Position numbers and translations under genes: made by a program. Below are positions 4,351-64,000 of a stretch of 64,000 nucleotides of DNA, piece after piece; the stretch's first letter is position 1, and each line of letters begins with the position of its first letter. The notes beneath the pieces were generated by a model. That model saw only the letters and a program-made list of their open reading frames with translations, was not told the DNA's origin and searched no databases. Source of the DNA: Candidatus Micrarchaeota archaeon (lineage in GTDB: Archaea; Micrarchaeota; Micrarchaeia; Norongarragalinales; Norongarragalinaceae); assembly GCA_016207165.1 (NCBI GenBank), contig JACQQD010000001.1, positions 96,001 to 160,000 of the forward strand, written 5' to 3'.

Positions 4351-4381
4351 TTCTTTTTTTTTGGATTCCTTGGAAGACGTT

Positions 4382-5864: not shown

Positions 5865-5925
5865 ACTTTTTTTTTGAAGTATAAAACCAAAGCGTTTTCT
5901 TGGGCTTCATTCTTTTCCAGTTCCC

Positions 5926-6393: not shown

Positions 6394-6397
6394 CGCT

Positions 6398-6853: not shown

Positions 6854-7166
6854 TGGGCGCGTCGCCGTCGGGGACCAGCAATTGGATGGATTCGTGGGTT
6901 TCGCCGGCGGCCAAAAGCATGCCTTCGCTTTGCACGCCTTTCATGGTTTTGGGTTCCAGGTTGCAGAGCACCACGATTTTTTTTCCGGCCAGGTCCTCGG
7001 GCGCGTAACGGAGGGCCAGTCCGGCGACCAGGGTTCGGGGCGCTTCTTCGCCGGTGTCCACGGAGAGTTTGAGGAGTTTGTCTGCGCCTTGGATTCTTTC
7101 GGCGGATAGGATTTGGCCGACGCGGATTTCCAGTTTCGAGAAGTCCTCGTATTTGACGGAGTCCAT
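6834..7166 (-). CDS. Stand-alone tRNA-binding OB-fold protein (MetRS C-terminal/Trbp111-like)
   Basis: DFSKLEIRVGQI, ADKLLKL, NLEPKTMKGVQSEGMLLAA. Confidence 0.92.
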   Translation of the reverse strand: MDSVKYEDFSKLEIRVGQILSAERIQGADKLLKLSVDTGEEAPRTLVAGLALRYAPEDLAGKKIVVLCNLEPKTMKGVQSEGMLLAAGETHESIQLLVPDGDAPIGTRIY

Positions 7167-7249
7167 CGCGTTTTTCCCTTTGTTCGATTCCTGGGTTTAG
7201 TGCGGCAGAGTGCTTTTGTTTGTTTGGGTTGGCCAGGCGGGTTTGTTTC

Positions 7250-8880: not shown

Positions 8881-9003
8881 TTTAATACTATTTTTATGGT
8901 TTTGTTTAAAATCATATGGTTTGGGGCTAAAAATTTGAGTTTTCGGTTCAGCGGGCTTTATATGCAAATGTAAAGCATACTTTACTTTCCTTTTGGGATT
9001 GTT

Positions 9004-10773: not shown

Positions 10774-10780
10774 ACTTTGT

Positions 10781-11428
10781 TTGTTGTGTGTGATTTTCGT
10801 GACTATCAAAGCCGTGTTATTTGACGTGGACGGCGTGCTGTTGGATTCCGAGGAGGCCTTGGTGCGCATGCATTCGGATGCCTTGGCGCATTTTGGTTTT
10901 CCTCCAGCGTCCCGGGAGGCGATCGTGCGGACCAACGGCCACTTGTTCGTGAATTGTGTCCGGATGCTGGTGCCCGGCATCCCGGATTTTCAGGCCGAGG
11001 CGTACGCGGAATGGACGAATCCGAGGTTCACGTCGCACTACATCCCCGCGTTTTCCAATGCGTTTCCTGACGTGGCAGATGTCTTGCCGGCGTTGTCGGA
11101 CCGTGGAGTTCGTTTGGGGGTGGTGACTAGCCAGAACCGCGCCCAGTTTGCAAGCACGCTCAAGCGCATTGGCTTTAATGGATTTGACGTAGTGGTTACC
11201 GCGGATGACGTTAGGAGGCCCAAACCAAATCCCGAACCCCTTGAAAAAGCGTTGGCGGTTTTGGGCGTAGTCGGGCGCCAAGATGCCGTGTTTGTGGGGG
11301 ACTCTGAAGTGGATGTGCAAACCGGTCGGGTTTCCGGCGTCCAAACCGTGCTGATGGCGCGTCCTTGGAACGCGCATTTGGACGGGCCGCGCCTAAATGG
11401 ATTGTTGGATTTGTTGGAGTGGGTCTGA
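10781..11428 (+). CDS. HAD-superfamily phosphatase
   Basis: FDVDGVLLDS, KPNP and VGDSEVD. Confidence 0.88.
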   Translation: MLCVIFVTIKAVLFDVDGVLLDSEEALVRMHSDALAHFGFPPASREAIVRTNGHLFVNCVRMLVPGIPDFQAEAYAEWTNPRFTSHYIPAFSNAFPDVADVLPALSDRGVRLGVVTSQNRAQFASTLKRIGFNGFDVVVTADDVRRPKPNPEPLEKALAVLGVVGRQDAVFVGDSEVDVQTGRVSGVQTVLMARPWNAHLDGPRLNGLLDLLEWV

Positions 11429-12667
11429 GTGGTGCAATACGTCATTCTCGCCGCGGGCCGTGGAAGCCGTTTGTGGCCCGTTGGAGAGAGCTTGCCCAAA
11501 TGCATGGTGCGGGTTCTTGGAAAACCGTTGCTGGAATGGATTCTGGATGACGTGGTGGGTTTTGCGTCGAAAGTCGTGGTGGTGGTCGGCTACAAAAAAG
11601 AGTTGGTCACGGACTATTTTTCCAAGAAGCCATATTCCAAGAAACTGGTCTTCGTGGAACAGGCGGAACAAAAAGGCACGGGGCACGCGCTTTTGTGTGC
11701 CAAACGCCATGTTTCCGAGTCGTTCGTGACGGTCAACGCCGACAGTTTTTCCGAGCCGGCTTTGTTCGGCTTGATGCGTGAACGCATCGAAAAAAATCCG
11801 ACGCAGTTTTTCGGTTTGTCCAAGTTCGTGGATGACGCGCGGGCCTTCGGATTGTTTGACGTGAAAGACGGCCTCATTGCCGGCATCCGGGAAAAACCGA
11901 AGGAAAAAGTCGCGGGTTGGGTGGGTTTGGGCAATTACTATTTGCCCAAGGAATTCTTCGATTATTTGGAACGAGTGCCGTTGTCGCCGCGGGGCGAGTA
12001 CGAGTTGACGGATGCGTTGGTGGCGTTCTTGAACGCCCAACCCCTTCGTGCCGTGGAATTCCAGGGGTACCGAAGCGAAATCACGTATTTTTGGGACCAC
12101 TTGGACATCAACATCCACGCGTTGGAGCGCCTCATGCCCGAACGCGTGGAGGGCACCATTGAATCCGGCGCCGTCGTGCAGGGAAAACTCTTCTTGGGCA
12201 AGGGCAGCGTGATTCGGGCGGGAACCCGCGTGGAGGGCCCGGCGTACATCGGCGAGAATTGTCTGATTGGTCCGAACGCCTTCATCCGTCGGGGTTCCGT
12301 GATTGAAAACAACTGCCACGTGGGCACGTGCGAAATCAAGAATTCCGTGGTCATGAACGGCGCGAACGTCCCGCACTTTTCTTATGTGGGGGATTCCGTG
12401 CTCTGCGAGGACGTCAACTTGGGCGCGGGTTCCATGATCGCCAACCTTCGGTTTGACAACGAGCCCATCTTGGTGCACTTCAAGCAGGGTTCCGTGGATT
12501 CGGGGCGGAGGAAACTGGGGGCCGCCATCGGTTCCGGCACGAAGGTCGGCGTGAATTGTTCGATTAACTGCGGGGTCTTGATTGGGCACAACTGCCGGAT
12601 TTACCCGGGTGTTCAAGTCAAGCACAACTTGGATAATGAAACCGTGTTCAAGGGCGATGGAAGTTGA
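11429..12667 (+). CDS. glmU: Bifunctional sugar-1-phosphate nucleotidyltransferase/acetyltransferase (archaeal GlmU)
   Basis: ILAAGRGSRL, hexapeptide repeats, HFSYVGDS; lies between glmS and a mutase. Confidence 0.88.
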   Translation: MVQYVILAAGRGSRLWPVGESLPKCMVRVLGKPLLEWILDDVVGFASKVVVVVGYKKELVTDYFSKKPYSKKLVFVEQAEQKGTGHALLCAKRHVSESFVTVNADSFSEPALFGLMRERIEKNPTQFFGLSKFVDDARAFGLFDVKDGLIAGIREKPKEKVAGWVGLGNYYLPKEFFDYLERVPLSPRGEYELTDALVAFLNAQPLRAVEFQGYRSEITYFWDHLDINIHALERLMPERVEGTIESGAVVQGKLFLGKGSVIRAGTRVEGPAYIGENCLIGPNAFIRRGSVIENNCHVGTCEIKNSVVMNGANVPHFSYVGDSVLCEDVNLGAGSMIANLRFDNEPILVHFKQGSVDSGRRKLGAAIGSGTKVGVNCSINCGVLIGHNCRIYPGVQVKHNLDNETVFKGDGS

Positions 12668-13968
12668 CGGACGACCCATCCTGTTCGCCGAACGCTTCAA
12701 GTACTTCTTCCAAGGCGAACTTGCTTGAAGACAATTTTTGCAAGGCCTATGATTTCCGGGGGAAATACGGTTCCGAGGCCACGGAGGAAAAGTGTTTCCG
12801 GTTGGGGTTGGCCTGCAATGCCTTTAAGCGGCCGATTGCGTTGGGCATGGATTACCGGGAGCACAACGATTCGCTGGCCAAGGCGTTTCTGCAAGGGTTC
12901 AAGGGCGAGGTGCGTTTTGCCGGCGCCGTGCCGTCGCCCGTGATCGGCTATAACGCCACGGCGTGGGGCGTCGTTTTTACGGCGTCGCATAACCCGGCGG
13001 GGTACAACGGCGTCAAATTCAAGAAACACAAGCGGTGCTTTTTCGAGGGGGAGCTGGCGAAGCTTCGGGAGTGGTACGATGCATCCAACACGCCGTTTTT
13101 GTCCCAGGGAACGCCTTTGCCGGACGTGGATGGATCGCTTCGGCAAACCTATTTGGACGCGTTGCCGGAGTTTGAATCCGGTGTCTACGATTTGGCGGGT
13201 GGAGCCGTGTGCGCGGTCAAAGAGGTTTTCCCGGATTCCGTATTTTTTGATCCGGATCCCGCCTTTGAAAAGCACGCGCCGGAGCCGAAAAGCGGCGCGC
13301 TTTCCGTCTTGCAGAAAAAATCCATTGACTCAAAGAAGGTGGGCTTCGCGTTTGACGGAGACGGCGACCGCTGCGTGGTGGTGGACCGCGGAAACGTGGT
13401 GGACGGCGGTATTCTGGCGGCGTTCATTGCTTCCCGTCATCTGCCCAAAAAAGCGAAGGTGTTGGTGACGTTGGACACGCAAGCCGAAGTGTTCCGATTC
13501 CTGGAGGATGAGGGCTTTTCCGTGGCGTACACGGCGGTGGGGGACGTGTTCCTGTTGAAGGAAATGCTTTCAAGCCAAGCTGATTTTGCCGCCGAGCGGT
13601 CGGGACATTACTCGTTCAAGAAGCACATGCCGGATTCCGACGGGATTTTTGCGGCGGCGTTGTTGTCCGGCACGCGTTTTGGCGAGGTCGCGGACTTTGC
13701 CTTCCAGTTCAAGCAAGTTTCCTTGCAGCAAGAGGCGCGTTTTGCCTTGGACTTCTCAAAACTCAGGGCGCTGGCCGAGGAAAAGGCGGTGCGCGTGGAC
13801 GCGCTGGACGGCGTCAAAGCGGAATTCGAAGATTTCACGTTTTTGGTGCGCGCGTCCAGGACGGAGCCCAAGGTGCGGATCAACGTGGAAGCGGATTCCA
13901 AGGAATTGGCGGAGAAGGGCTTGGCATGGACGTTGGAGGCACTGCACCGTTGCCGGGTTCACTCGTAG
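12664..13968 (+). CDS. glmM: Phosphohexomutase (phosphoglucosamine mutase-like)
   Basis: TASHNP, FDGDGDR and RASRTEPKVR; operon context. Confidence 0.75.
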   Translation: MTDDPSCSPNASSTSSKANLLEDNFCKAYDFRGKYGSEATEEKCFRLGLACNAFKRPIALGMDYREHNDSLAKAFLQGFKGEVRFAGAVPSPVIGYNATAWGVVFTASHNPAGYNGVKFKKHKRCFFEGELAKLREWYDASNTPFLSQGTPLPDVDGSLRQTYLDALPEFESGVYDLAGGAVCAVKEVFPDSVFFDPDPAFEKHAPEPKSGALSVLQKKSIDSKKVGFAFDGDGDRCVVVDRGNVVDGGILAAFIASRHLPKKAKVLVTLDTQAEVFRFLEDEGFSVAYTAVGDVFLLKEMLSSQADFAAERSGHYSFKKHMPDSDGIFAAALLSGTRFGEVADFAFQFKQVSLQQEARFALDFSKLRALAEEKAVRVDALDGVKAEFEDFTFLVRASRTEPKVRINVEADSKELAEKGLAWTLEALHRCRVHS

Positions 13969-42961: not shown

Positions 42962-44455
42962 ATGACTTTTTCTATGGTTTTCAACACTGAGCAAGTTTTC
43001 AAAACTGAAGGCGTTCCAGATTATACCTTTGTTAAGCCATCGAATTACACCGATATTTTCATTGATTTTCGTAATCCGAAAAAGCCGGTAATTCTTGAAG
43101 GCCAATCTGGTACGGGTAAAACTACTGTTGCTTTGAAAATACTAAGTGAGCTTTACACTGGAAACGAGCCAAAGGTTTACAGCGGCCGCAATCGAGACGA
43201 CGTTACTGCCTTAAGGAGTGCACTTTTGAGTAGAACCAGTCCGGTAATAATTATAGATGATTTTCATAGGCTTTCTGATGACCTAAAGGAGGAAATTGGC
43301 GAAAGCATAAAGATTTTTGCCGAGAAAGATTCAACCCCCGTTCCCAAAGTAATCATTATTGGGATTAACAAAATTGGCACAAGTTTAGTTCAGTTTACTC
43401 CGGACTCAGCAAAACGACTTGGAATACATAAAATTGCCAAGGGTTCCAGATCCCAAATCTTCGAACTTATTTCTAAAGGCGAAGCCACGTTGAATCTGGC
43501 ATTTTCGGACGAAGATAAAGAAAAAATTCTAAATGAAGCTGAAGGTGACTATTGGCTCACTCAATTAATCTGTCAGAAGATTTGTATCCAGCACGACATT
43601 CTTTCTACTCAGTCATCCACCGTCACTTTACCTTTCGATGTTAATAGTGTTAGACTTGCATTGGTTGATAAGTTTGATGAACGTTACAAGCCTTTTGTTT
43701 TAGAATTTGTTAAGGGGACTCGATTTAGACAATCGAACCGAGGTTACTTTAGACTTCTCCATGCGGTTTCCGAATCAGGTAAGGCCACGGTTAGTTTTGA
43801 CGAATTATCTGGAGAAAATCCGAAGATTAAGCCTACGCTTGACCAGATTAAGAAAAAGCGTCTGGCCCAATTAATTCAGAAAAAGAATTTAGAAAATTTC
43901 TTTTACTTTGATTCAAAACTCTATACGTTTTCAATTGAGGATCCTGCTGTGGCGTATTATGTTCGATATCTAACCTGGGAGAACCTACGGAAGGATGCTG
44001 GTTTTTCTAAAGAAGTATCTGAGTTTAAGTATGATGTTGCGTTTTCATTCGCTGGGTCTAGCAGAGATTTAGTCGAATTGGTTAAGACCGAACTCGAGGA
44101 ACAAGACGTCACCTGCTTCTATGATCGGGATTATGAGCACAAATTGTTGGGTTCGGATTTAGAAGCGGAGTTCGAGGCAGTCTACTCTAAAGATTCTCAT
44201 CTAGTTGTAGCATTTATTGACGAAGAATACAAGACTCGAATCTGGCCCAAATTTGAACGAAGCTGTTATAATTCGAGAGTTGGATCCGGTCAAGTAATTC
44301 CTGTGCGGCTAGACGACACGATTATACATGAAATCTCCGACAGTATCGGTAGAATCGACTTTTCTCTATCCTCGGGTTGGGAGTCAAAAACTAAATCTCT
44401 TTTAACAGATAAAATATTTGAACGATTGAAGGAATTAGATTCTAGCGTTTCGTGA
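42962..44455 (+). CDS. P-loop ATPase fused to a C-terminal TIR domain (putative antiviral defence)
   Basis: GQSGTGKT, IIIDDFH; YDVAFSFAG...FYD...WPKFE...IPVRLDD; AT-rich relative to flanks. Confidence 0.85.
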   Translation: MTFSMVFNTEQVFKTEGVPDYTFVKPSNYTDIFIDFRNPKKPVILEGQSGTGKTTVALKILSELYTGNEPKVYSGRNRDDVTALRSALLSRTSPVIIIDDFHRLSDDLKEEIGESIKIFAEKDSTPVPKVIIIGINKIGTSLVQFTPDSAKRLGIHKIAKGSRSQIFELISKGEATLNLAFSDEDKEKILNEAEGDYWLTQLICQKICIQHDILSTQSSTVTLPFDVNSVRLALVDKFDERYKPFVLEFVKGTRFRQSNRGYFRLLHAVSESGKATVSFDELSGENPKIKPTLDQIKKKRLAQLIQKKNLENFFYFDSKLYTFSIEDPAVAYYVRYLTWENLRKDAGFSKEVSEFKYDVAFSFAGSSRDLVELVKTELEEQDVTCFYDRDYEHKLLGSDLEAEFEAVYSKDSHLVVAFIDEEYKTRIWPKFERSCYNSRVGSGQVIPVRLDDTIIHEISDSIGRIDFSLSSGWESKTKSLLTDKIFERLKELDSSVS

Positions 44456-54681: not shown

Positions 54682-56036
54682 ACCCGGACATGTTCCGCGC
54701 GTACGACATCCGAGGCATCGTCGGAGAGGACCTCAACGACGCCGTCTTTGAACGCCTGGGCCAGGCCTTCGGGCAATACCTGCGCGAACGCTCTGGAAAC
54801 AAGCCGTCGTGTGCCGTCGGCGGCGACAACCGCGAATCGTCGGCTTCCTATTTGAGCGCCTTCACCACGGGCTTGCTTTCCGTGGGCTGCGACGTGATGC
54901 ACGTCGGCGAGATCACGACTCCCGGCCTTTACTTTGCCAATTCCTTTTTGAAAACCACCGGCGCGGCCGCGGTGACGGCGTCGCACAACCCGCCGAAGTA
55001 CAACGGCGTGAAGTTCATTTTCCAAGGAAAAAGCGCGGGCGGAGCCGAGGTCCAGCGCGTGCGCGAACTGGCCGAGAAAAACTCGTTTTCAAAAGGGCAA
55101 GCCACCCTCTCCAAAAAGGACGTCACGCCGGCTTATTTGGAGGCCTTGTCGGAAAATGCCGAGCCCCTCAAACTCAAGGTGGTGGCGGACTGCGGCAACG
55201 GCGTGGCCTCCGATTTCGCTGTTTCCTACTTGAAGTCGCTGGGTTGCGACGTGGTGCCGCTTCACTGCGATTCCTCCAAGCCTTTTTCCGTGCACGTGCC
55301 GGACCCCGTGGACCCCGACAACTACGTGGATTTGGCGGCCGCCGTCCGCAAGCACGAGGCCGACGTGGGCTTGTTGTTTGACGGCGACGGCGACCGCGTG
55401 GGCGCCGTGGACGAGTTCGGTGGCATCGTGTCACCCGACAAGATGTTGATCTTGTTCGCGCGCAAGTTCCTCAAGGAAAACCCCGGCGAAAAAGTCGTCA
55501 TTGAAATCAAGTGTTCGCAGGCCGTTCAGGACGAAGTCGAGAAGCTCGGCGGAACGGCGGTGTGGGCGCCCACAGGCAGAACGGTGATTGAAGACGTTTT
55601 GTTCAAGGAACACGCGAAGCTGGCTGGGGAAATGTCGGGCCACTTTTTCTTTTTGAACGGCCGGGCGTGGCTTTCCGAATCGCTGTACGCGGCACGGCAG
55701 TTGCTTGAAATCATCGCTGAAAACGGTTCGCTTTCCAAGCAGGTCGCTTCCATGCCGAAGTACGTGTCGTCCCGCGAGTACCGAGTGGACGTCACTGACG
55801 GGGAAAAATTCCGAATCGTTTCGAAACTGTCCAGCCAATTCAAGAAGACGCACCGCGTTTTGGAACTGGATGGCGCCAAGGTGTTGTTTGACGATGGTTG
55901 GGGCTTGGTTCGAGCGTCCAATTCCGAAGCCAAGGTGTCCCTCCGGTTTGAATCCAAAACGCGGAAGGGCTTGGCGGCGATTGAGTCCGCTTTCAAGGAA
56001 AAACTCTTGGCCGCAGGCGTGTCCGTGCCGTTTTAG
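54663..56036 (+). CDS. Phosphomannomutase/phosphoglucomutase
   Basis: FRAYDIRG, TASHNP, DGDGDR and GEMSGH. Confidence 0.93.
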   Translation: MPVVRLNPDMFRAYDIRGIVGEDLNDAVFERLGQAFGQYLRERSGNKPSCAVGGDNRESSASYLSAFTTGLLSVGCDVMHVGEITTPGLYFANSFLKTTGAAAVTASHNPPKYNGVKFIFQGKSAGGAEVQRVRELAEKNSFSKGQATLSKKDVTPAYLEALSENAEPLKLKVVADCGNGVASDFAVSYLKSLGCDVVPLHCDSSKPFSVHVPDPVDPDNYVDLAAAVRKHEADVGLLFDGDGDRVGAVDEFGGIVSPDKMLILFARKFLKENPGEKVVIEIKCSQAVQDEVEKLGGTAVWAPTGRTVIEDVLFKEHAKLAGEMSGHFFFLNGRAWLSESLYAARQLLEIIAENGSLSKQVASMPKYVSSREYRVDVTDGEKFRIVSKLSSQFKKTHRVLELDGAKVLFDDGWGLVRASNSEAKVSLRFESKTRKGLAAIESAFKEKLLAAGVSVPF

Positions 56037-56425
56037 AGTCTCAATTCTTCCGGACGAATGATTTGGATTCCGCGAAATTCCTTGAGTTTCAGCAAGTGCC
56101 GATCGTACGTGAGGATATGGGTCGCATGGCCGTCTACCGCACACGCCAGTACCTTGTCGTCTTCGGGGTCATCTTTCACGGCGTGTATGACCGTCGTTAC
56201 TGCAACTATGTTTGTCAGCGCGGTGACTCTTGACGTGGCGTCTTGCACTTCTCTGGTCTGGTACTCGAAGTCCCTATGCAAGACGGATTGAAGTTCTTCA
56301 AGGATTTCTTTTGAAACCAACAGGGTTGCATGTGTCTTGTGCAACGCGCGGATTTTTTTGTCCGCCTCGCTACCGTCCCACTGGGTGGCAGAAACTAAAA
56401 TGTTCGTATCCAGCACCACCCGCAT
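56033..56425 (-). CDS. vapC: PIN-domain toxin
   Basis: VVLDTNILVS, DPEDDKVLACA and TYDRHLL. Confidence 0.9.
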   Translation of the reverse strand: MRVVLDTNILVSATQWDGSEADKKIRALHKTHATLLVSKEILEELQSVLHRDFEYQTREVQDATSRVTALTNIVAVTTVIHAVKDDPEDDKVLACAVDGHATHILTYDRHLLKLKEFRGIQIIRPEELRL

Positions 56426-56428
56426 GTT

Positions 56429-56704
56429 TCAGAAACGCCTTTTCCGATGCTTTTCAATGAGGTCCGGAATATCCCTTTCAGTCAATCCCTTCTTTTGTAG
56501 CCGTTTCTTGCCTTCTTTTCCCATGGTTTCCCAATCCTTCCAAAACTGTTCTTCCGTCGGCGGAAGCATGCGTTTAAGTACAATCGTGTCGCCGCGGACC
56601 GCCAAGGCAAACGCCGTGCCCTCTTCAATGCCCATTTCGTCCCGCGTTTCTTTAGGAATCACGAGCTGTCCCTTGCTGGATACTTTTACGATTTCAACGT
56701 GCAT
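56429..56704 (-). CDS. AbrB/MazE-type antitoxin
   Basis: KVSSKGQLVIPKETR; directly upstream of the PIN gene. Confidence 0.88.
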   Translation of the reverse strand: MHVEIVKVSSKGQLVIPKETRDEMGIEEGTAFALAVRGDTIVLKRMLPPTEEQFWKDWETMGKEGKKRLQKKGLTERDIPDLIEKHRKRRF

Positions 56705-56883
56705 GGCCTTCTCCTCCACGGTCCAAAAATCCATAAATCTTACTTTTGGATTCGGCCTATTAATGCTTTTCGGAATTCGCGGCAAACCTGACCCGCACTT
56801 GAAACCCCTTAAAAACGTCTTTGGACACAAGAATTTTCCTGATTCGCCCAGTTTCTGTTTATTCAGTTACTGGCAATCAAGAC

Positions 56884-57013
56884 GCCGAGGTAGCTCAGCC
56901 TGGCTAGAGCGCTAGACTCATATGCCCGTTTCCTTGTTTAGGGAGCGGTGGAATTCTATGCCGGTGGTTGCTGGGCCATCTAGAAGTCGAGGGTTCAAAT
57001 CCCTCCCTCGGCA
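56884..57013 (+). tRNA. tRNA-Met(CAT), elongator-type, with 55-nt intron at 37/38 (56923-56977)
   Basis: GCCGAGG/CCTCGGC acceptor, CTAGA/TCTAG anticodon stem; BHB with CTCA/TGGG helix and TA^T and CC^A bulges. Confidence 0.92.
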
Positions 57014-58113
57014 TGACCCGGAAAGTTCATGTGCCGCACTCCATCAAGATTCAAACGAGCGTACTGTTTGAGCAAATCCATTTTGCCTTCGTCAAAGATT
57101 TTCCTGACGATTTGACGCATCAAGTCCTTGTCCTTCCGGATCAATTCGACGACTTCATCCGAAAAGCCTTCCAGGAATTCCTCGGGAGACGTGGCCCCCA
57201 TTTTCTGCAATTCACCCATGAGCGCCTGCTCTCCGGAGTGATCGTACACTGAAAGCATGTTGGACTTCTTGGACCACCGCGCAAACGTGCGCGTCGCCGA
57301 ATCACTAGCGCCGTTGGCCCGCAACTGCGTGATCTTGGAGTGCCGGAACCAATGCGGGTTGATCCGCTTCTTGACGCCGGCACGCTGGCCGAGGCCACGC
57401 AAGAACTTGGCCAAGTTCGCCGGCTCCAACGCATCACCATGAAAATTCAGCCAAAGCGGGGCCTCCGAATCCGATTTCTTCGGGTGTTCACGCAAGTACG
57501 CCCGGAACAAGTCGACGGCGTGACGATTGATCACCGGCACGCGGCCGTTCCGGTACGGCGTCTTGGTACCATGAAAGTGAAAGATCAAAAACGGCGGCCG
57601 ATCCGTGACGTCGCCCACCTTCAAATCCGTGAACTCCTTGGCGGCGCCCCCGGATTCAAACAAGCACCGCACCACAACTTGCTCCCGCACGCTGCGACAC
57701 GCCGCCTCCAAGCGCGTGATGTCCTCATCGGTGAGAACCTCGTTCTCCGGAATCAATTTGTCCGCCGGCCGAACCACGCGCACCCGGCCCGCCCGCTTGG
57801 CGTCACCATCCAAGAACCGGTAAAACTTTTTGAGAGCCACCTGGTAGTCGTGCTTGGTCCACGCCCGCCACTTGCTCGTGTTAATGGCCACTAGGACGGC
57901 ATCCAAGTCTTCGTCCTGGAGATCCACCAACGCCTTGGAAGTCAAGCGCTTGATGGACGTAAAATTGCTGATGTACTTGCTCAACCGCAACTCGCCCACG
58001 CCCTGGGCCTGCAAGTTGTTCAAGAACCGCGTGATGGCCTCCTTGTCCCGCGCCGAAAAAGTAGACCTAGCCAACGACAGCTGGCGTTGCGCGTACAAAG
58101 CCACTCCATCCAT
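56995..58113 (-). CDS. int: Tyrosine recombinase/integrase
   Basis: KT, PHWFRHS, W(SKKS) and VYDH catalytic Tyr; the first catalytic Arg position reads ESGGAAKE. Confidence 0.92.
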   Translation of the reverse strand: MDGVALYAQRQLSLARSTFSARDKEAITRFLNNLQAQGVGELRLSKYISNFTSIKRLTSKALVDLQDEDLDAVLVAINTSKWRAWTKHDYQVALKKFYRFLDGDAKRAGRVRVVRPADKLIPENEVLTDEDITRLEAACRSVREQVVVRCLFESGGAAKEFTDLKVGDVTDRPPFLIFHFHGTKTPYRNGRVPVINRHAVDLFRAYLREHPKKSDSEAPLWLNFHGDALEPANLAKFLRGLGQRAGVKKRINPHWFRHSKITQLRANGASDSATRTFARWSKKSNMLSVYDHSGEQALMGELQKMGATSPEEFLEGFSDEVVELIRKDKDLMRQIVRKIFDEGKMDLLKQYARLNLDGVRHMNFPGHAEGGI

Positions 58114-58181: not shown

Positions 58182-58283
58182 TCAAACCACCAAGAAAACC
58201 CGGTCGCCCACGCGCTCAACCACGCCGTGCGGAAACAAGCTTAACGCTTCCACCGGCACCCTTGAAATATCCCAACGCCTCAC
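58182..58283 (-). CDS. Possible 33-aa protein
   Basis: GTG start overlaps the RHH stop (GTGA). Confidence 0.3.
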   Translation of the reverse strand: MRRWDISRVPVEALSLFPHGVVERVGDRVFLVV

Positions 58284-58414
58284 GCCGACCCCTCCGCATA
58301 CTTCTGCAAAACGCACGACCGGATCAACTCACTGCGAGACAAGCCGATACGCTCCGACTCCTTGTCCAACAACTTGACAATTTTCTCCGGCAACGAAATT
58401 GAAACAAGTTCCAT
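58280..58414 (-). CDS. Ribbon-helix-helix (CopG-like) protein, 44 aa
   Basis: Hand translation MELVSISLPEKIVKLLDKESERIGLSRSELIRSCVLQKYAEGSA. Confidence 0.85.
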   Translation of the reverse strand: MELVSISLPEKIVKLLDKESERIGLSRSELIRSCVLQKYAEGSA

Positions 58415-58496: not shown

Positions 58497-58844
58497 ATGC
58501 GTATGGCGGACGAGCCGACTATTGAAGAAATGGTCCAACTCCTAAAGAAACGGCGTTTCCTGCCGTTTGGCCACTCGTCTTACTTGGCAATCTTCATCGC
58601 AATGCTGGAAAAACCGCTCTCCAAGGCCGAAATGCAGGAAATCGCAGGGCCCACTCCGCAAGGCGCGTTCATTCGAATTTTTGCAGCCCCGGGCGTCGGC
58701 TTCATGAACCGCGTCTTCGGCAAAAGCAAGCAAGGTAGCGACATCGTCAAGTACGAGTTGACGGAGAACGGACGCCAATTCGTCCTGGATCAACTGGACC
58801 TACTCAAAACGTTTTATAAGGCCACAGAACCAAAAAAAGAGTGA
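58497..58844 (+). CDS. Winged-helix DNA-binding protein
   Basis: LEKPLSKAEM and wing KYELTENGRQ. Confidence 0.65.
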   Translation: MRMADEPTIEEMVQLLKKRRFLPFGHSSYLAIFIAMLEKPLSKAEMQEIAGPTPQGAFIRIFAAPGVGFMNRVFGKSKQGSDIVKYELTENGRQFVLDQLDLLKTFYKATEPKKE

Positions 58845-58851
58845 ACAGCCA

Positions 58852-59160
58852 ATGGACAACTTCGAAGCGCAAGTAATTTCAATAACCCCCGTTCACTGGC
58901 CGGATGGCACTCTTGCCGTTAGCGTCGTCTTCGGTAACCCCGTTGCCGTTCAACAAAAAACACCAGATCAAAAAAACGTCGTACACGTTCAATTGCCAGG
59001 CCAACTACAAAACCAAGCGGTTCCACTCGCAAATCGCGTTATACTTCTTTTAACCCAAAAAGAATGGGACCAACTTCAACACAAGCCGACATACGGGGAA
59101 GCTTTCACATTCGCATCAACGAAAAACGGTTTCAAATTTGAACGGGCTGCAAAAAATTAA
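58852..59160 (+). CDS. Hypothetical beta-rich protein
   Basis: 102-aa ORF in an operon with the wHTH gene and hicBA. Confidence 0.65.
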   Translation: MDNFEAQVISITPVHWPDGTLAVSVVFGNPVAVQQKTPDQKNVVHVQLPGQLQNQAVPLANRVILLLTQKEWDQLQHKPTYGEAFTFASTKNGFKFERAAKN

Positions 59161-59161
59161 C

Positions 59162-59482
59162 ATGTTTTGTTTTGACCTCCGGTTCAACACAAAAAAAGAC
59201 GGAAAATTTTGGTTTATCGAGTGCCCAGACTATCCCGTGTTCACGCAAGGCCGAACCAAAAAAGAAGCCAAAGAAAACCTCAAAGAAGCATTTTTGCTTT
59301 ACGCCTCCGATTCAGATGCACAAGCCAAGCATCCCGAGCTAAAGCAATTATTCGCCCAGCAGCCAACCCAAGTCAAGTCCCTTACCGTTACGTTCGCGGT
59401 ACCCGTCGATTCTTTCCTCTCAGCCATTTATGCCCCGCTTGCCGATTCTGTCAGGAAAACAACTGGCGAAAATCCTCTGTAA
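59162..59482 (+). CDS. hicB: HicB-family antitoxin
   Basis: CPDYPVFTQGRTKKEAKENLKEA. Confidence 0.85.
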   Translation: MFCFDLRFNTKKDGKFWFIECPDYPVFTQGRTKKEAKENLKEAFLLYASDSDAQAKHPELKQLFAQQPTQVKSLTVTFAVPVDSFLSAIYAPLADSVRKTTGENPL

Positions 59483-59660
59483 ACACTTCGGCTTCACGGA
59501 ATCCCGAATAGCTGGAAGCCACCTCATCCTGAAAGGCGCCCGAAACGGCCAAGCCAAGACCATTCCAATTCCACTGCACCCGGAAATCGGGCGGCACTTG
59601 TTGAGCAGGATACTAAAAGAAGCCGAAATTTCACGAGAAGAATTCGAAAACGCGTTATAG
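59430..59660 (+). CDS. hicA: HicA-family toxin
   Basis: MPRLPILSGKQL, GF, GSH, IPLH and LLSRILKEAEISREEF. Confidence 0.9.
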   Translation: MPRLPILSGKQLAKILCKHFGFTESRIAGSHLILKGARNGQAKTIPIPLHPEIGRHLLSRILKEAEISREEFENAL

Positions 59661-59867
59661 GCCGCGCAAATCTGAGAAGATTACGTTCAAGCCAAGCAAC
59701 GCCTTGCTTTTCTCCTCCGGCGACAACTCCGGCTTGTCCACCAACCTCATGACCATGGCGTGGTACTTGCGTTGTTCTTCCAGCGTAATCCAGTGGCGTT
59801 CCACGGCCCGCGCCAAATCCGATTCAATCTGCTCAAGGTACCGAGCGTAGGCCTTCCCCATCACCAA
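59655..59867 (-). CDS. Hypothetical protein
   Basis: 70-aa ORF with an upstream TTTTAAA element. Confidence 0.55.
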   Translation of the reverse strand: MVMGKAYARYLEQIESDLARAVERHWITLEEQRKYHAMVMRLVDKPELSPEEKSKALLGLNVIFSDLRGL

Positions 59868-59976
59868 AGACTCGCGGGAACCCTTTAAAACCCTGGAGGC
59901 AGCAGCTGGCCGGTGAAATTTCAGCCTTTCTTGCGGCGTTTTTCTTCTAGTTTAACCAGAATCTCTAGGTGATTTT

Positions 59977-60318
59977 ATGACCAAAAAAACCCAAAGCCAA
60001 ATTCTCGCGGAACTCCAGAACGGCTTGCACGACTCAAGCATCAAAGCAATGGACGGCTACCTGAAATACCTCCAGGAATTAAAGGTGCATTCAGACGAAC
60101 TAGAAAAGCTCGAATTTACCTCTGCTTACGGCACAACGGCGCTTTTGCAAATGAGCGCTGTCACGTCAACTCTTGGTAAACAAATTTTTGAATTGGAGAG
60201 CTCCTTGAACCGTTTTTCCGAAACGACGACGAAACTGACCCACGTCCTGATAGTTCTTGCAGGACTCCAAATCGTTTTAGTCGTCCTGCAGGTTGGCCGG
60301 ATGTTCAATTTCTTTTGA
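59977..60318 (+). CDS. Hypothetical protein with coiled coil and C-terminal TM helix
   Basis: GGTGA RBS; hydrophobic C-terminus. Confidence 0.6.
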   Translation: MTKKTQSQILAELQNGLHDSSIKAMDGYLKYLQELKVHSDELEKLEFTSAYGTTALLQMSAVTSTLGKQIFELESSLNRFSETTTKLTHVLIVLAGLQIVLVVLQVGRMFNFF

Positions 60319-60329: not shown

Positions 60330-60509
60330 TCACTTTCCGCGGCGGATGAGTTCTTCCCGAAGCGCATCAATGGCGTCAATCAACCGTTCGTGGGACGCCT
60401 GGAGCTTTCGGAACACGGTTTCATGGATGTACACCATGTACGCAAGCCATAGCGCGACGATGCCGTTGTTCGCCAGCGCGTCCAAAATGATTGCGGAGAA
60501 ATCAGTCAC
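60330..60509 (-). CDS. Small single-TM plus coiled-coil protein (holin-like architecture), 59 aa
   Basis: GTG overlaps the upstream stop; NNGIVALWLAYMVY TM followed by a helix. Confidence 0.55.
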   Translation of the reverse strand: MTDFSAIILDALANNGIVALWLAYMVYIHETVFRKLQASHERLIDAIDALREELIRRGK

Positions 60510-60715
60510 ACGCCAAACCCCATTTTCCGCAGGCGCTCCGCCAAAGCGTTTGCGTCCATGTATGAAGACTTTACGGTGACTTCCACGTCCACCGTGCCAT
60601 CCGGATTCGTCGCCACGACCTCCCACTTGACGGCGTTGGCCAACTCCAAGGCCTCCGGCGACAACGACCCCAAAACCCCTTGCGGTTTCAACGGAATGTT
60701 TTTGAGCCTCATCAA
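60506..60715 (-). CDS. Hypothetical viral protein
   Basis: Four-base overlaps with both neighbours. Confidence 0.6.
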   Translation of the reverse strand: MMRLKNIPLKPQGVLGSLSPEALELANAVKWEVVATNPDGTVDVEVTVKSSYMDANALAERLRKMGFGV

Positions 60716-61761
60716 ACCACCCCGTCAACCAGCAACGGCGTTCCCAAGTCGATGTTGATAGTCCTGTCAACGAAACCCGCGCAGTACAACCCGAATCCGG
60801 CAACGCTTGCCGGGCCGGTGTTCGTCGTCGTCAGCGTGGGTCCACCCGTGGCTGCGTGCGCGGGCAAATTCTGCCAGTACGAAAACTCGACTCCAGCCTT
60901 CCAATAGACTTCAAAGGTGTTGAATGCGGTTCCAACGGCTGCACCGGTGGCGTGGTTCGTCGCCGCGCCCGCCGCACTCGTCGTCTGCAAACGGAAACCC
61001 GCGCTTGCAATGTTGATGCCGAAAGCACTTTTCGGGTATGCGCCGGTAATGTCCGCCGTCGCGCTTTCCGTGAAATAGATTCCCGCTTCCATGTTGGCGT
61101 CCACCACGGACGCGCGAATGGAAAACTTCGCCCAAAGTTCGGTCACGGACGCGCCGATGGGCCAAATCAATTGCGTCTTGTTGTTCGCCCCGGACCGCGT
61201 GCTGGCCATTCGCGCGTAGGCCACGGCTTGCGATTGCACGTTCGTGCTTCCTGCTCCCTGGTTGTCCGTGCTGGGAGCGCTACCTAGAACTGTGCCGTCC
61301 ACGTGGGCGATTCGTGCCGCGGGAGCAACCATGCGCATGTTCACGCGGTACTTGAGGGCGTTGGCGACGTTGGGCAAACCAAGGCCGCCGACTTGGGCTG
61401 CTGTTGGCGAGGAAATCGCGCACAACACTTCGTTGACAAAACCGTTTCCAAACTTTCCGCGCCCCGTTGCATCCGCAGTAAACACTCCAACCGGCAACTT
61501 TGACAAGAGAACTTGGTTGTCGCCCAGCAATCCCGAGTCCACGAAAGAACTGGCGAATTTGCCGCGTCCCGTCGCATCCGCCGTGAACAAGCCGGTGGGC
61601 ACGTGGCCCAAAGCCATGGCCGCCCACGCTGCCAAGCTGGATCCATTCGTCGCAAGCAACTGGTTTGCGGTGCCGCCCTTGACGCGACTGGACCCGCCGG
61701 CAGTGGTCTCCAGCGTGACGTTGTCGGGAGTAAAAACGCTTCCACCAGGAAGAAAACCCAT
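60712..61761 (-). CDS. Putative spike/fibre protein
   Basis: Gly/Ala/Thr-rich; repeat P.G.FTADATGRGKF with 35-aa period; beta-rich C-terminal domain. Confidence 0.6.
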   Translation of the reverse strand: MGFLPGGSVFTPDNVTLETTAGGSSRVKGGTANQLLATNGSSLAAWAAMALGHVPTGLFTADATGRGKFASSFVDSGLLGDNQVLLSKLPVGVFTADATGRGKFGNGFVNEVLCAISSPTAAQVGGLGLPNVANALKYRVNMRMVAPAARIAHVDGTVLGSAPSTDNQGAGSTNVQSQAVAYARMASTRSGANNKTQLIWPIGASVTELWAKFSIRASVVDANMEAGIYFTESATADITGAYPKSAFGINIASAGFRLQTTSAAGAATNHATGAAVGTAFNTFEVYWKAGVEFSYWQNLPAHAATGGPTLTTTNTGPASVAGFGLYCAGFVDRTINIDLGTPLLVDGVV

Positions 61762-61764
61762 TCG

Positions 61765-62907
61765 TCAAATCAACCCGGCTTTGCGCATGCCTTCCCGAAT
61801 CACGCCCGTGTCAAAGCCAAGGCCCGACTGGGAAAGCACGGTCAAGAAACTTTCTCCGGAGGTCGACGGCGACACCGTCAGCAAGAAAGCCAGCTGGCGT
61901 TCAAGCGTCGATCGAAGGCCGGCGTCGACGAATCCGCTTTCTCCAGCCAACGATCGGCGGATGGCGTCTTCGGCGACTTGCCGCGCCGTCATGCCCGGAG
62001 ACGCAAAGTCTCCAGACAAGAGGCGCAACTGCGCGGGGGGAGCCGGCAGTGGAACAGGAGAATAATTCGGGATGACTTGCGCAGGCGATGGTTGCGGGGG
62101 CAAAGTAACCTGGACTTGCAGCGGGTAACCGCCAGTAGGCTCGGCGGTGCCGACTTCGCCAAAGTAAAGCCTCACCGCTTCCAAACCCGCATTCAACGAG
62201 TCTTTGGCCGTCCAACCAAACGCCCAAAACACGGGAGCGCCGATGCCCAAGTCTACGCGCTTGATGAACACGTCACCGCTTTGCGTAACTGCCTCTTGGG
62301 CATCCGGGGACAAACGCAGCAACAACGAGCCGAGGCCCGTTTCAAAGCCCGGCGTCAGCCAACCCCCAAGCACCAAGTAATTGACTTTGCGAGCGGAAAC
62401 GCCCAGGCTTCTAGCCACGGTAGCCGTGACGGTAAACGCGGACGCGTCCATGGTTTCCACGGACAAGCCCACCGCCTGAATCGCGCCCTTGACTGTCGGC
62501 AGAATCGTTTGGCTGCCAGCATCTTTTCCGGTCACGATGACGACGATGCCGCTTGTTTCCGCCGGCTTTTGAGCAGCCGCTTGCTCCCGGACGCCGCCTA
62601 AGACGAAGTCGTAGATGCCAGCCGGGATTCCGAACAACGGGTTAGTGGCCGTCAAGGCTTGCGCGGCCGGCGACGTGGCCAATTGCTGCGACGTTTCAGC
62701 CAAGGCTGGCAACACGGGTTGAAAAGAGACTTCCGGAGCGCGAGGAAACACGGGTTCCGGGGCCTTGGGTTCCTCGATGACGAACGCGTTGCGTGGCAAC
62801 GGCACGTTCTTAAACTCCTTGGGCTTGGCTTCGTCTTTCACCGACAGCCAGTAGCCTAACGCCAGGAGGCCAGCCGCGGCCAAAACCAACGTGCCCTGGT
62901 TCGCCAT
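61765..62907 (-). CDS. Putative virion membrane protein
   Basis: N-terminal TM helix and Pro-rich linkers. Confidence 0.6.
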   Translation of the reverse strand: MANQGTLVLAAAGLLALGYWLSVKDEAKPKEFKNVPLPRNAFVIEEPKAPEPVFPRAPEVSFQPVLPALAETSQQLATSPAAQALTATNPLFGIPAGIYDFVLGGVREQAAAQKPAETSGIVVIVTGKDAGSQTILPTVKGAIQAVGLSVETMDASAFTVTATVARSLGVSARKVNYLVLGGWLTPGFETGLGSLLLRLSPDAQEAVTQSGDVFIKRVDLGIGAPVFWAFGWTAKDSLNAGLEAVRLYFGEVGTAEPTGGYPLQVQVTLPPQPSPAQVIPNYSPVPLPAPPAQLRLLSGDFASPGMTARQVAEDAIRRSLAGESGFVDAGLRSTLERQLAFLLTVSPSTSGESFLTVLSQSGLGFDTGVIREGMRKAGLI

Positions 62908-62908
62908 T

Positions 62909-63148
62909 TCATTTCCTCAACAGCAGAAACGCTGCGATCGCCAGTCCTCCAAGCAAAATCAAGGGGCTAATAGAGAATCCCGAAGACGTGGCTTGAACGG
63001 CCGGCGCTGGCTGCGTGATCGGCTTGACGATTTCCTCTCCAACCACGAATGCAGTCACTGCGATAGCGCCCAACGCCAAAACCGTGGGCAAGGCAGGCAA
63101 CGCGGCAACAGCAATCAAAGGCAAAACCATTTTTTTCAACACCTTCAA
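62909..63148 (-). CDS. Small membrane protein (putative virion membrane component)
   Basis: Hydrophobic N-terminal half and C-terminal TM helix ending in RK. Confidence 0.65.
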   Translation of the reverse strand: MKVLKKMVLPLIAVAALPALPTVLALGAIAVTAFVVGEEIVKPITQPAPAVQATSSGFSISPLILLGGLAIAAFLLLRK

Positions 63149-63507
63149 GCTGGGATCAAGTCCCCTTGGATCATCAACTGGACGACGCCCGAGCTGGAGG
63201 CAACCAAGGCCAACAATTCGATGGTTTCGTTTTGGTCCAGGACAAGAGGTTTTCCGCTTCGGTTCACAGTGAACGCTTGCGTCAAGCGGCGTGAAGACGT
63301 CGTGGTCAACAACGGCTTACCTTTGATCCGTAAATCAATTTGACCGGCCACCGCCGACCCCGTGAAATTCGAGTCCGCCGTAATGCTGATCTCGAGGATC
63401 TCCGCCTTTTTTCCAGCGGGAACCGTGAACGTGACCTGACTGGTCAAAGCCGTCTGGTTGACAGTGATCGCGTCCGAGAGGAACACGAAGGGATCCGACG
63501 CCGGCAT
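63145..63507 (-). CDS. Putative single-jelly-roll minor capsid/penton protein
   Basis: 120 aa of alternating beta pattern (FTVPAGKKAEILEISI...LVLDQNETIEL). Confidence 0.5.
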   Translation of the reverse strand: MPASDPFVFLSDAITVNQTALTSQVTFTVPAGKKAEILEISITADSNFTGSAVAGQIDLRIKGKPLLTTTSSRRLTQAFTVNRSGKPLVLDQNETIELLALVASSSGVVQLMIQGDLIPA

Positions 63508-63514
63508 GGCGCCA

Positions 63515-64000
63515 TCACTCCCTGATGCCCAGGTACCAGTTGATCGTGTCCGAGCCGGCGCCCGTCACGTCCAACTGCATCTGGCTGGAGGGAATGAAGG
63601 GCGTCACCGGCACGCGGAAGCGACCGGTGATGTGTCCGGACACGAAGCGGTCCTGGTCAAGCGCAATCAAGTCCGCCGGCGTGAGAGCTGACAATTCCAG
63701 CGATCCATCCCGCGAAAGCGTGAAGTCCGTAACGTTGGCCTCCGTGCCGACCGTGAACCCCACGAGTTCAATGCGGCGGCCTTGCGGCAGGTTCGGCCCA
63801 AAACGGTTTGCTCCGGACACGATGGACTGCGACAAGCGCATGTACCGTTGCGTGAAACCCGAATCCACGTTGGAGTAAAGACCCACGACAGTCAACGTCA
63901 CCGTGCCACCCGTGGCGCCGGACGTAGCCATGTCACTGAACGGAGCAATGGTGACTTGCAGCCGCGCGTCCATGTCTTTTTGCGCAATCGCGTTCGGCAA
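63515..64000 (-). CDS. Putative double-jelly-roll major capsid protein, C-terminal part (5'-truncated)
   Basis: LPQGRRIELVGF...VTDFTLSRDG...DLIALDQDRF...GRFRV resembles the second jelly roll of STIV-like capsid proteins (recognised by eye). Confidence 0.5.
   Translation of the reverse strand: MPNAIAQKDMDARLQVTIAPFSDMATSGATGGTVTLTVVGLYSNVDSGFTQRYMRLSQSIVSGANRFGPNLPQGRRIELVGFTVGTEANVTDFTLSRDGSLELSALTPADLIALDQDRFVSGHITGRFRVPVTPFIPSSQMQLDVTGAGSDTINWYLGIRE

Follow-up and report, generated by a model that had tools for sequence, protein, structure and literature searches.

DPANN archaea are ultrasmall episymbionts with genomes of about 1 Mb, and to our knowledge their viruses are barely known. Seven new groups of DPANN viruses, tailless icosahedral viruses among them, were reportedly described by Wu, Liu, and Ni in Nature Microbiology in 2024, and the archaeal proviruses TKV4, MVV, and pTN3 are said to have been attributed to the STIV group by Krupovic and Bamford in 2008. 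Passages of a later analysis also list these three as STIV-group archaeal proviruses (Yutin et al. 2018; PMC5894146). AMDV5, an uncultured archaeal virus from acid mine drainage, is linked to I-plasma (PMC2745766), and a published survey of archaeal proviruses reports zero in 1,356 Micrarchaeota genomes (PMC13573593).

We analyzed a 64,000-nt stretch of DNA (the window) from a groundwater Micrarchaeota chromosome. The window end cuts a capsid gene, and the contig was extended to recover the rest of the element; features past that end are given in coordinates of the extended contig (L002), on which 13682-13696 is window-equivalent 68682-68696. The element is very probably the integrated genome of a temperate, tailless icosahedral virus of the PRD1/STIV/PM2 class (double jelly roll [DJR], Varidnaviria). 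A first-pass annotation had suggested a tailless DJR provirus in a Micrarchaeota-like host; the fold, the packaging ATPase, the att sites, and the host, which is a member of the Micrarchaeota, all support that reading.

Borders and accessory genes

The element extends from window position 57001 to window-equivalent 68696 (about 11.7 kb, 23 ORFs), with 4.7 kb lying beyond the window end. The genes first noticed at 60330-64000 are real, but the element is not confined to that interval. Its integration target is a host tRNA-Met(CAU) gene on the plus strand (56884..57013; Rfam tRNA, 59.1 bits, E = 6e-11), located by ARAGORN in intron mode as tRNA-Met(cat) at contig C1:152884-153013 with an intron of 55-57 nt; default settings miscall this intron-bearing tRNA. 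The 15-nt core of attL (57001..57015) comprises the tRNA's final 13 nt and 2 further nt. The second att site that the first-pass annotation advised seeking was found beyond the window: attR (L002 13682-13696) is identical to attL and lies 11.68 kb from the copy at the tRNA 3′ end, and this repeat (D14) is the sole exact direct repeat bracketing the element.

A tyrosine integrase of 372 aa is encoded on the minus strand at the tRNA border (56995..58113; Pfam Phage_integrase, E = 3.3e-13; phrog_1 integrase, E = 2.9e-17). Its last seven codons span the att core and terminate in tRNA sequence, and its motifs, read from the translation, are intact; an integrase and a flanking direct repeat of a tRNA 3′ end, both features of integrated elements, are present together. 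Both junctions are crossed by Logan contigs from two samples (X1 records 1 and 2; X2 records 9 and 15). No virion was seen, and these contigs showed neither an excised or free circular form nor an attP junction or excess coverage; the single run that allows a comparison gave a depth of 20.5 for the provirus contig and 24.2 for the host flank, both being contig-level figures. A blastn search for CRISPR matches to the element within its own genome returned none.

Inward of the integrase gene lies a gene for a 44-aa ribbon-helix-helix (CopG-type) DNA-binding protein (58280..58414, minus strand; Pfam RHH_1, E = 5.7e-9), followed by a lower-GC accessory region (58497..59160, GC 0.46-0.51) with two plus-strand ORFs of 115 and 102 aa, for which scans of Pfam, PHROGs, and NCBIfam (22, 19, and 23 element proteins, respectively) gave no family above cut-off. 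Also on the plus strand are a HicB-like antitoxin (114 aa) and a HicA toxin (76 aa) (59138..59660; Pfam HicA_toxin, E = 1.9e-11); the antitoxin-like Pfam matches of the HicB-like partner, which lies upstream of HicA, are weak. Two small ORFs of 70 aa (minus strand) and 113 aa (plus strand), the latter with a hydrophobic segment at its C-terminus, occupy 59655..60318 and have no family matches in the same three libraries. Beyond the window, minus-strand genes encode proteins of 67 aa (L002 9757-9960), 100 aa (10501-10803), and 68 aa (11721-11927), a 223-aa zinc-ribbon protein (11060-11731), a serine recombinase (11931-12713), and a 308-aa wHTH protein (12694-13620).

Capsid, packaging, and late-operon proteins

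The beta-rich, capsid-like C-terminus reported at first pass (63515..64000, minus strand) is the last 161 of the 279 codons of a major capsid protein (MCP) gene, which runs on to L002 9354 (window-equivalent 64354) and is assigned from fold and context. An AF2 model of the full 279 aa (pLDDT 89, pTM 0.84) is a double jelly roll, that is, as modeled, the MCP is two jelly-roll barrels in one chain. Comparison of the full protein with the STIV and PM2 capsid proteins, recommended before the gene was complete, agrees with the original call by eye: in a VIA-align search of 48,161 chains the STIV MCP scored Z = 20.5 (rmsd 2.8, 254 aa), PRD1 P3 20.3, PM2 P2 18.2, and FLiP 16.8, and the best 11 rows are viral DJR capsid proteins throughout. 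Foldseek matched PRD1/PR772 P3 (E = 4e-12) and the STIV MCP (E = 2.6e-11, TM 0.70/0.62) in the PDB, and AMDV5 protein 4 (AMDV5_4; E = 2.8e-15, TM 0.76/0.74) was the top match in BFVD. The MCPs of PRD1, STIV, PM2, FLiP, and PBCV-1 head the Foldseek and VIA-align lists, at Z 15-20.5.

No sequence similarity between this protein and known MCPs was detectable. A profile search of the PDB matched no MCP; a local hmmsearch gave E = 0.088 (4.8 bits); and hhalign of the MCP (A2) with STIV2 A345 gave a probability of 0.4%. The family is recognized by none of Pfam, PHROGs, and NCBIfam, and by MCP sequence similarity in these searches, similarity being the clustering criterion of Yutin et al. (2018), the element falls outside the STIV group.

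A packaging ATPase, likewise listed earlier as something to look for, is encoded upstream of the MCP gene (193 aa; L002 9923-10504, minus strand). A phmmer search of the PDB matched it to STIV B204 (E = 3.8e-9, 179 of 193 residues), and in the alignment the Walker A, Walker B, and downstream arginine motifs all line up. A genome-packaging ATPase of the FtsK/HerA superfamily (A32-like) and a two-barrel MCP are traits of the DJR-MCP viruses (Varidnaviria/Bamfordvirae, Tectiliviricetes-like), and the element shows both. Among the phage-record matches listed (20 of 23), all are to tailless membrane-containing viruses, including STIV2, NO16-like Vibrio phages, AP50, phiG2, phiKo, and MetSV. The protein also matches phrog_2666 (E = 6e-26), whose label, "terminase large subunit," is that carried by the ATPases in the STIV2 and MetSV records, with phrog_2666 itself noted on the MetSV one. 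Homologs were found in eight of the 11 related loci; of the three loci without one, two are truncated contigs, and L017 gave none in the 10 kb upstream of its MCP gene.

The neighboring 120-aa beta protein (63145..63507, minus strand) has an all-beta AF2 model of intermediate confidence (pLDDT 76.9) with a single jelly roll. Its structural matches, which include STIV A223, HHIV-2, SPV1, and PRD1 P5, fall at Z 8-10, a range common for any jelly roll. Homologs were identified in all 11 related loci, directly 3′ of the MCP gene in seven, and this protein is a candidate penton (vertex) protein.

These genes belong to a tight minus-strand operon, as first described, with intergenic gaps of -4 to +12 nt from a 98-aa membrane protein gene through the last peptide. 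The small membrane proteins seen at first pass are multi-TM proteins flanking the capsid genes: the 98-aa protein, with three hydrophobic segments, lies just past the window end (L002 9367-9663), and a 79-aa protein with two to three such segments (62909..63148) is 52% identical to its L004 homolog. A 380-aa protein (61765..62907; 46% identity to its L004 homolog), which begins with a hydrophobic anchor and contains Pro-rich stretches, has no match in Pfam, PHROGs, or the ESM Atlas, and is a candidate membrane-anchored virion protein. The Gly/Ala/Thr-rich protein of the earlier reading (349 aa, 60712..61761; A 16%, G 13%, T 10%) is conserved in a same-genus provirus over residues 1-115 alone (40% identity), the remainder being divergent; its ESM Atlas neighbors are viral hypothetical proteins, with Mtd_N in 15% of the members of one cluster. 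It is a candidate spike or receptor-binding protein, offered as a lead only. A 69-aa protein (60506..60715) has no homolog among the related loci, and its stop overlaps the GTG start of the last late-operon gene (60330..60509), which encodes the 59-aa peptide previously called holin-like. This peptide was confirmed to have a single hydrophobic segment and, after it, a charged C-terminal helix; it has no convincing homolog in the related loci (best E = 0.005) and keeps the holin label as a candidate. The minus strand carries all of these late genes. Roles in the penton, spike, membrane, and egress are candidate assignments, made from fold, position, and conservation only.

Relatives, alternative readings, and proposed life cycle

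An MCP profile search recovered the protein from seven of 401 genomes of the phylum. MAGs of Micrarchaeota, Aenigmatarchaeota, and Woesearchaeota contain relatives of the element, as do contigs of about 10 kb, and remote MCP relatives lie on similarly sized marine and Bathyarchaeia- or Thermoplasmata-binned contigs. The relatives have virus-like traits: the longest contig measures 7.6-12.9 kb in 12 of 25 MCP clusters. One relative, the contig L007, spans 9,465 bp and has a terminal direct repeat of 22 nt, another (G286) is a 10-kb element with an integrase, set between 22-nt repeats at a tRNA-Ser, and those in G147 and G329 have integrases adjoining tRNAs. The same-genus provirus has an MCP only 68% identical and occupies a different locus, which suggests separate recent infections.

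That divergence argues against an inactive cryptic relic, a DJR provirus by descent that no longer makes virions and persists in the chromosome thanks to its HicAB addiction module or to genes that have been domesticated. The HicA/HicB pair, the short 15-nt att core, and the want of an excised form or excess coverage in the Logan contigs would all suit such a relic, but all 23 ORFs are open, the late operon keeps its overlapping start and stop codons, the two att copies are identical, and the integrase motifs are intact; we regard this reading as unlikely. ATPase, MCP, and jelly-roll protein are conserved across phyla, the hallmark of a functional morphogenesis module, and Pfam, PHROGs, and NCBIfam revealed no plasmid replication or conjugation families. 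Both points make it very improbable that the element is a pTN3-type integrative plasmid-virus hybrid that has kept its capsid genes and spreads by membrane vesicles or other non-virion routes, even though it carries two recombinases and, in passages of Yutin et al. (2018; PMC5894146), pTN3 and TKV4-like elements, an integrative plasmid included, sit in the STIV group.

The 120-aa model also matches capsid proteins of HHIV-2, HCIV-1, SH1, and P23-77, and Thermus phage phiKo is among the matches of the ATPase, as might be expected if the 279-aa and 120-aa proteins were the large and small single-jelly-roll (SJR) MCPs of a Sphaerolipoviridae-like member of the Singelaviria. The chance of this is slight: the 279-aa chain aligns over 254-270 residues with the STIV and PRD1 DJR MCPs at Z >20, and VIA-align gave no SJR capsid protein a comparable score. 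Assignment to the Singelaviria by two SJR MCPs was rejected, both barrels lying within the 279-aa chain. It is scarcely credible that this chain is a cellular DJR protein of the DUF2961/PNGase-F-like kind in an unrelated integrated element; DUF2961 (Z 11.3), glycosidases (Z 11.4-11.5), and PNGase F (Z 6-7) do appear in the fold list, but trail the viral MCPs by about 9 Z units, and the gene is flanked, within the DNA that the att sites bound, by a viral packaging ATPase on one side and a conserved jelly-roll protein on the other. Membership in the Caudoviricetes was also rejected: no HK97-fold MCP, portal, large terminase, or tail genes were found in the Pfam, PHROGs, and NCBIfam scans. The first-pass annotation had seen no terminase, portal, or tail genes, which the Pfam and PHROGs results bear out, and had named loss of the jelly-roll fold, or HK97-type or conjugative machinery, as grounds for abandoning its reading; the fold holds and no such machinery was found.

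For a temperate tailless DJR virus, the gene content suggests the following cycle. A circular viral genome, its attP located within the terminal part of int, would be recombined by the integrase with the 3′ end of the tRNA, which would thereby be restored. After induction, MCP trimers would assemble as pseudo-hexameric capsomers around a lipid membrane inside the particle, where the 79-aa and 98-aa proteins would reside; pentons would be made of the 120-aa jelly-roll protein, and the TM-anchored 380-aa protein may form a vertex spike or receptor-binding complex with the 349-aa protein and its variable C-terminus. The ATPase would pump dsDNA into the procapsid via a vertex, and the terminal 59-aa membrane peptide possibly aids egress. 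The element contains no polymerase, so replication would depend on the host and on element DNA-binding proteins (the 308-aa wHTH and zinc-ribbon proteins).

Significance and comparison with known viruses

We put at about even the chances that the element represents an undescribed DJR lineage, of family level or higher, specialized on DPANN hosts, with temperate, tRNA-targeting genomes of 9-12 kb. Since its MCP has no profile in public libraries, standard virus-detection pipelines seem to miss it; if the undescribed-lineage reading is true, the invisibility of the MCP to Pfam, PHROGs, NCBIfam, and known-MCP searches would explain the zero count in the Micrarchaeota survey. The element carries the PRD1-STIV-adenovirus capsid lineage into another deep archaeal branch, which bears on the age of that lineage. 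The MCP, ATPase, and candidate penton profiles form a set usable for mining DPANN viromes, and the tRNA-targeting integrase/att pair could be put to use in the genetics of organisms for which such tools are lacking.

The Corticoviridae (PM2) and PM2-like, NO16-like prophages share with the element a small DJR MCP (PM2 P2 has 269 aa), genomes of about 10 kb that are probably circular, and temperate relatives, and the NO16-like phages match its ATPase. PM2-type viruses differ in having bacterial hosts and in lacking MCP sequence similarity to the element, in which no PM2-type replication initiator was found. AMDV5 protein 4 (UniProt B3GAN6), the only protein of that virus compared, is the best viral predicted-structure match of the MCP (rmsd 3.4, 289 aa); it is only 18% identical, and its assigned host belongs to the Thermoplasmatales.

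The element departs from the Turriviridae/STIV group (STIV, STIV2, TKV4, MVV, and pTN3) in its MCP, which showed no sequence similarity in the searches described above (STIV2 A345 and the PDB among the targets) and has 279 aa versus 345 aa, in having no recognizable turret proteins, and in its host, a DPANN archaeon rather than a member of the Thermoproteota, Euryarchaeota, or Thaumarchaeota. It shares with that group a DJR MCP, for which STIV is the best structural match, and a B204-type ATPase, whose gene lies upstream of that for the MCP, an order also found in STIV2; in both, a beta-sandwich protein adjoins the MCP, the genome is small and polymerase-free, and entry into the archaeal chromosome is integrase-mediated.

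Capsid protein and packaging ATPase

Because the flagged operon reaches the end of the window, the analysis was carried 20 kb further along the contig (L002, whose positions plus 55000 give window positions). The open frame at window 63515–64000 corresponds to the 161 C-terminal codons of a gene encoding 279 aa (L002 8515–9354), which lies in a long minus-strand gene train. No match to the encoded protein was obtained in Pfam, PHROGs, or NCBIfam; sequence searches of the PDB (phmmer and profile) and of 50,697 phage records (tblastn) were also negative. A collection of 5.8 billion proteins contains 24 homologs besides the protein itself (25 listed); the longest contig measures 7.6–12.9 kb in 12 of the 25 clusters, is shorter than 5 kb in ten, and exceeds 100 kb in three (MAG contigs).

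A structural model built from the homolog alignment (AlphaFold2; pLDDT 89, pTM 0.84) consists of two successive eight-strand beta blocks. Its first match in the PDB is PRD1/PR772 P3 (Foldseek; E 4e-12); the STIV major capsid protein (MCP) is also matched (E 2.6e-11, TM 0.70/0.62), with PBCV-1 Vp54 next. The closest BFVD entry is AMDV5_4 (E 2.8e-15, TM 0.76/0.74); tectivirus, STIV, and giant-virus MCPs rank behind it. VIA-align, which is independent of Foldseek and was run against 48,161 chains, places the STIV MCP at Z 20.5 (rmsd 2.8 over 254 aa), PRD1 P3 at Z 20.3, PM2 P2 at Z 18.2, FLiP at Z 16.8, and phiCjT23 at Z 16.1, whereas cellular double-jelly-roll (DJR) proteins score Z 11 and below only. 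Judged by this predicted fold, the 279-aa protein is a DJR MCP; the first-pass annotation had proposed a jelly-roll capsid from the truncated gene, and the full-length candidate has that fold. A three-copy complex prediction scored 0.00 with controls not run, and was counted neither for nor against a trimer.

The gene for a 193-aa protein lies upstream of the MCP gene. Over residues 6–184 this protein matches B204, the genome-packaging NTPase of STIV with a solved structure (E 3.8e-9), and the GxxGSGKS motif, the hhhhDEA Walker B motif, and an RH..G....T.R motif all align. Among phage records it has 23 matches (tblastn), and the 20 listed all belong to tailless membrane-containing icosahedral viruses. 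The packaging ATPase that the first-pass annotation had proposed to look for is thus present. Every item named there was found in the sequence, and its overall reading, a DJR provirus, is supported by the fold, the ATPase, and the repeat-bounded element described below.

Integration site and state of the element

The source genome spans 1.27 Mb in 12 contigs and is an estimated 90% complete. A tRNA with a 55–57-nt intron (57 nt in the Rfam match) lies at L002 1884–2013 (window 56884–57013) and was identified as tRNA-Met(CAU), anticodon cat, by ARAGORN in intron mode; with default settings the same program miscalls it as "tRNA-???" with an anticodon of four bases. In intron mode, introns are assigned to 23 of the 35 tRNAs predicted in the genome, some with implausible lengths. 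An exact 15-nt direct repeat, the only meaningfully placed pair in the 16 kb searched, defines the att core: the left copy (L002 2001–2015) is made up of the final 13 nt of the tRNA and 2 nt more, and the right copy (attR) is at L002 13682–13696. Between them lie 11.68 kb and 23 ORFs. Host genes to the left of the tRNA encode sugar-nucleotide enzymes and a PIN/AbrB pair; to the right of attR are genes for a BNR/sortilin-type protein and a pirin. The pair, at window 56033–56830 and immediately adjacent to the tRNA, consists of a PIN-domain protein of 130 aa and an AbrB/SpoVT-like protein of 133 aa, and appears VapBC-like when its translations are inspected by eye. Farther left, GC content falls to 0.39 over 1 kb at window 43001–44000 (genome approximately 0.57).

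The element encodes a tyrosine integrase (Pfam E 3.3e-13) whose gene has its 3′ end inside the att core; the last seven codons, at window 56995–57015, consist of the core and six bases of the tRNA and encode HAEGGI-stop. Since the gene ends within the core, a circular form would carry attP in the 3′ end of int and the enzyme would have another short tail; since core and tRNA bases encode this tail, integration would exchange it and leave the catalytic domain unsplit. The same overlap between integrase gene and tRNA occurs in a relative in another genome of the phylum (G329).

Both junctions of the element are spanned by Logan contigs from two samples of a groundwater study (X1, records 1 and 2; X2, records 9 and 15); the assembly may derive from X1. 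Depth in X1 is similar for the provirus contig and the flank contig (20.5 versus 24.2). No circular junction is listed among the Logan contigs; four runs were found, with no RNA listed.

Just right of attR, at L002 13686–13846 (window-equivalent 68686–68846), is a dispersed repeat of approximately 40–110 nt, with eight further copies in the same genome and 17 and seven matches in two genomes of the same genus; one copy sits at the edge of the provirus in G147, a congeneric genome. It could be a tRNA-downstream motif, a MITE, or a terminator. In the two same-genus genomes, examined for an unoccupied tRNA-Met site, synteny is lost past the left-flank gene, the right flank being a dispersed repeat. 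A Logan joint found in X1 and in another set, X4, runs from 2007 to 13730, tRNA end to right flank, and skips 11,722 nt; only 21 letters match on its shorter side, and 29 unlike letters lie between the two sides. It may represent the empty site in a related population; a different tRNA with the same dispersed repeat behind it would explain it equally well. Because the right flank is a dispersed repeat, with one copy directly 3′ of tRNA-Leu(CAG) on another contig of the genome (C6), the joint is uninterpretable and was not counted.

Other genes of the element

From the gene for a 98-aa membrane protein to the last peptide of the operon, successive genes are spaced by −4 to +12 nt. The 98-aa protein and a 79-aa protein contain two to three hydrophobic segments apiece, a 380-aa protein has an N-terminal anchor and no usable match in the ESM Atlas, and the terminal 59-aa peptide was identified by direct reading of the sequence. 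A 349-aa protein has only its first 115 residues in common with its counterpart in the same-genus provirus; receptor-binding proteins typically combine a conserved N-terminus with a divergent remainder. In the ESM Atlas a weak pointer leads from the 349-aa protein to viral proteins, Mtd_N-bearing clusters among them, which is a lead only.

The model of the 120-aa protein (pLDDT 76.9) is an eight-strand jelly roll that matches Ena3A (Z 10.2), the cement protein of phage KHP40 (Z 9.7), STIV A223 and HHIV-2 (both Z 8.7), SPV1 (Z 8.2), and PRD1 P5 (Z 7.8); for the predicted structure, these values establish the jelly-roll fold, not the role. The protein was aligned with 12 homologs (alignment A3), and a local iterative HMM search (inclusion E ≤ 1e-3) was made of 1,105 ORFs from 11 loci; its E-values are inflated once iteration has brought members into the model. 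MCP and 120-aa homologs were recovered at all 11 loci and ATPase homologs at eight, two of the three misses being truncated contigs. In 11 of 11 loci the 120-aa homolog is on the MCP strand and within 2 kb downstream, and in seven it directly adjoins the MCP gene. Fold, conservation, and position together suggest that this protein is the putative penton.

In the early or accessory part of the element are genes for an RHH protein, a HicA/HicB pair, a serine recombinase, a zinc-ribbon protein, and a wHTH protein of 308 aa. The serine recombinase (Resolvase E 7.6e-27; L002 11931–12713) is of the resolvase/invertase type, has a C-terminal HTH, and is additional to the tyrosine integrase; as called, its ORF has a hydrophobic N-terminal extension, and the true start may be an internal Met. 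The HicB-like/HicA pair (window 59138–59660) lies in an accessory region whose GC content, 0.46–0.51, is below that of the rest; it could act as an addiction or anti-virus module of a DPANN virus. Pfam, PHROGs, and NCBIfam scans of the element's proteins revealed no polymerase, terminase, portal, HK97 capsid, tail, or conjugation family. The lack of terminase, portal, and tail genes noted at first pass is therefore borne out over the whole element, and the HK97-type or conjugative machinery that would have spoken against a DJR virus was not found.

Relatives and comparison with known viruses

Between the zinc-ribbon gene and the N-terminus of the 349-aa homolog, the G147 provirus is syntenic with the element (MCP 68% and ATPase 61% identical); it has its own integrase, occupies a different locus, and shows no att repeat of at least 12 nt at a sensible distance. 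More distant MCP relatives (35–36% identity) are on contigs binned as Aenigmatarchaeota and Woesearchaeota, and on a 9,465-bp contig (DYHT01000067.1) binned as Chloroflexus sp., with a 22-nt terminal direct repeat and genes for an archaeal-type MCP, an ATPase, and a jelly-roll protein; this last contig is probably a mis-binned, complete, circular viral genome. Among 401 sampled genomes of the phylum, seven, the window's own included, have an MCP match at E ≤ 1e-5; one of them (G286) carries a 10-kb copy with an integrase, bracketed by 22-nt repeats at the 3′ end of a tRNA-Ser.

When 1.84 billion representatives were scanned in full by HMMER with the MCP, 136 proteins scored at E ≤ 1e-3; the number fell to 95 at E ≤ 1e-10 and to 55 at E ≤ 1e-30. 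Ten clusters were sampled; among their members are MAG contigs of Micrarchaeota, Bathyarchaeia, and Thermoplasmata as well as marine contigs of 7–17 kb, and all real product names in them are "hypothetical protein." No MCP relative was present among 354 pattern matches to IMG/VR viral contigs, and a scan of a metagenome contig collection yielded only two short loci. Comparison of the element with its own genome (blastn) detected nothing outside the element itself: no second copy and no CRISPR spacer match.

DPANN virus groups, tailless icosahedral forms among them, were reportedly described in 2024 by Wu and colleagues. Our literature search found no Micrarchaeota with a jelly-roll MCP; the supplements to that work (Wu et al. 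2024) may bear on novelty. A 2026 provirus survey detected none in 1,356 Micrarchaeota genomes (PMC13573593). Among archaea, DJR proviruses that combine an integrase and a B204-type ATPase with a beta-sandwich protein are described from Thermoproteota, Euryarchaeota, and Thaumarchaeota (the STIV group; Yutin 2018, PMC5894146); the main texts of Yutin 2018 and Woo 2021 make no mention of Micrarchaeota, DPANN, Woesearchaeota, or Aenigmarchaeota. The element has an ordinary DJR provirus architecture in an unusual host phylum, Micrarchaeota, and its capsid-protein family is not recognized by public libraries. As in STIV2, the ATPase gene is upstream of the MCP gene. The MCP is unrelated in sequence to STIV2 A345 (hhalign probability 0.4%; hmmsearch 4.8 bits), and local hmmsearch against the ORFs of STIV2 and MetSV gives no link to known MCPs.
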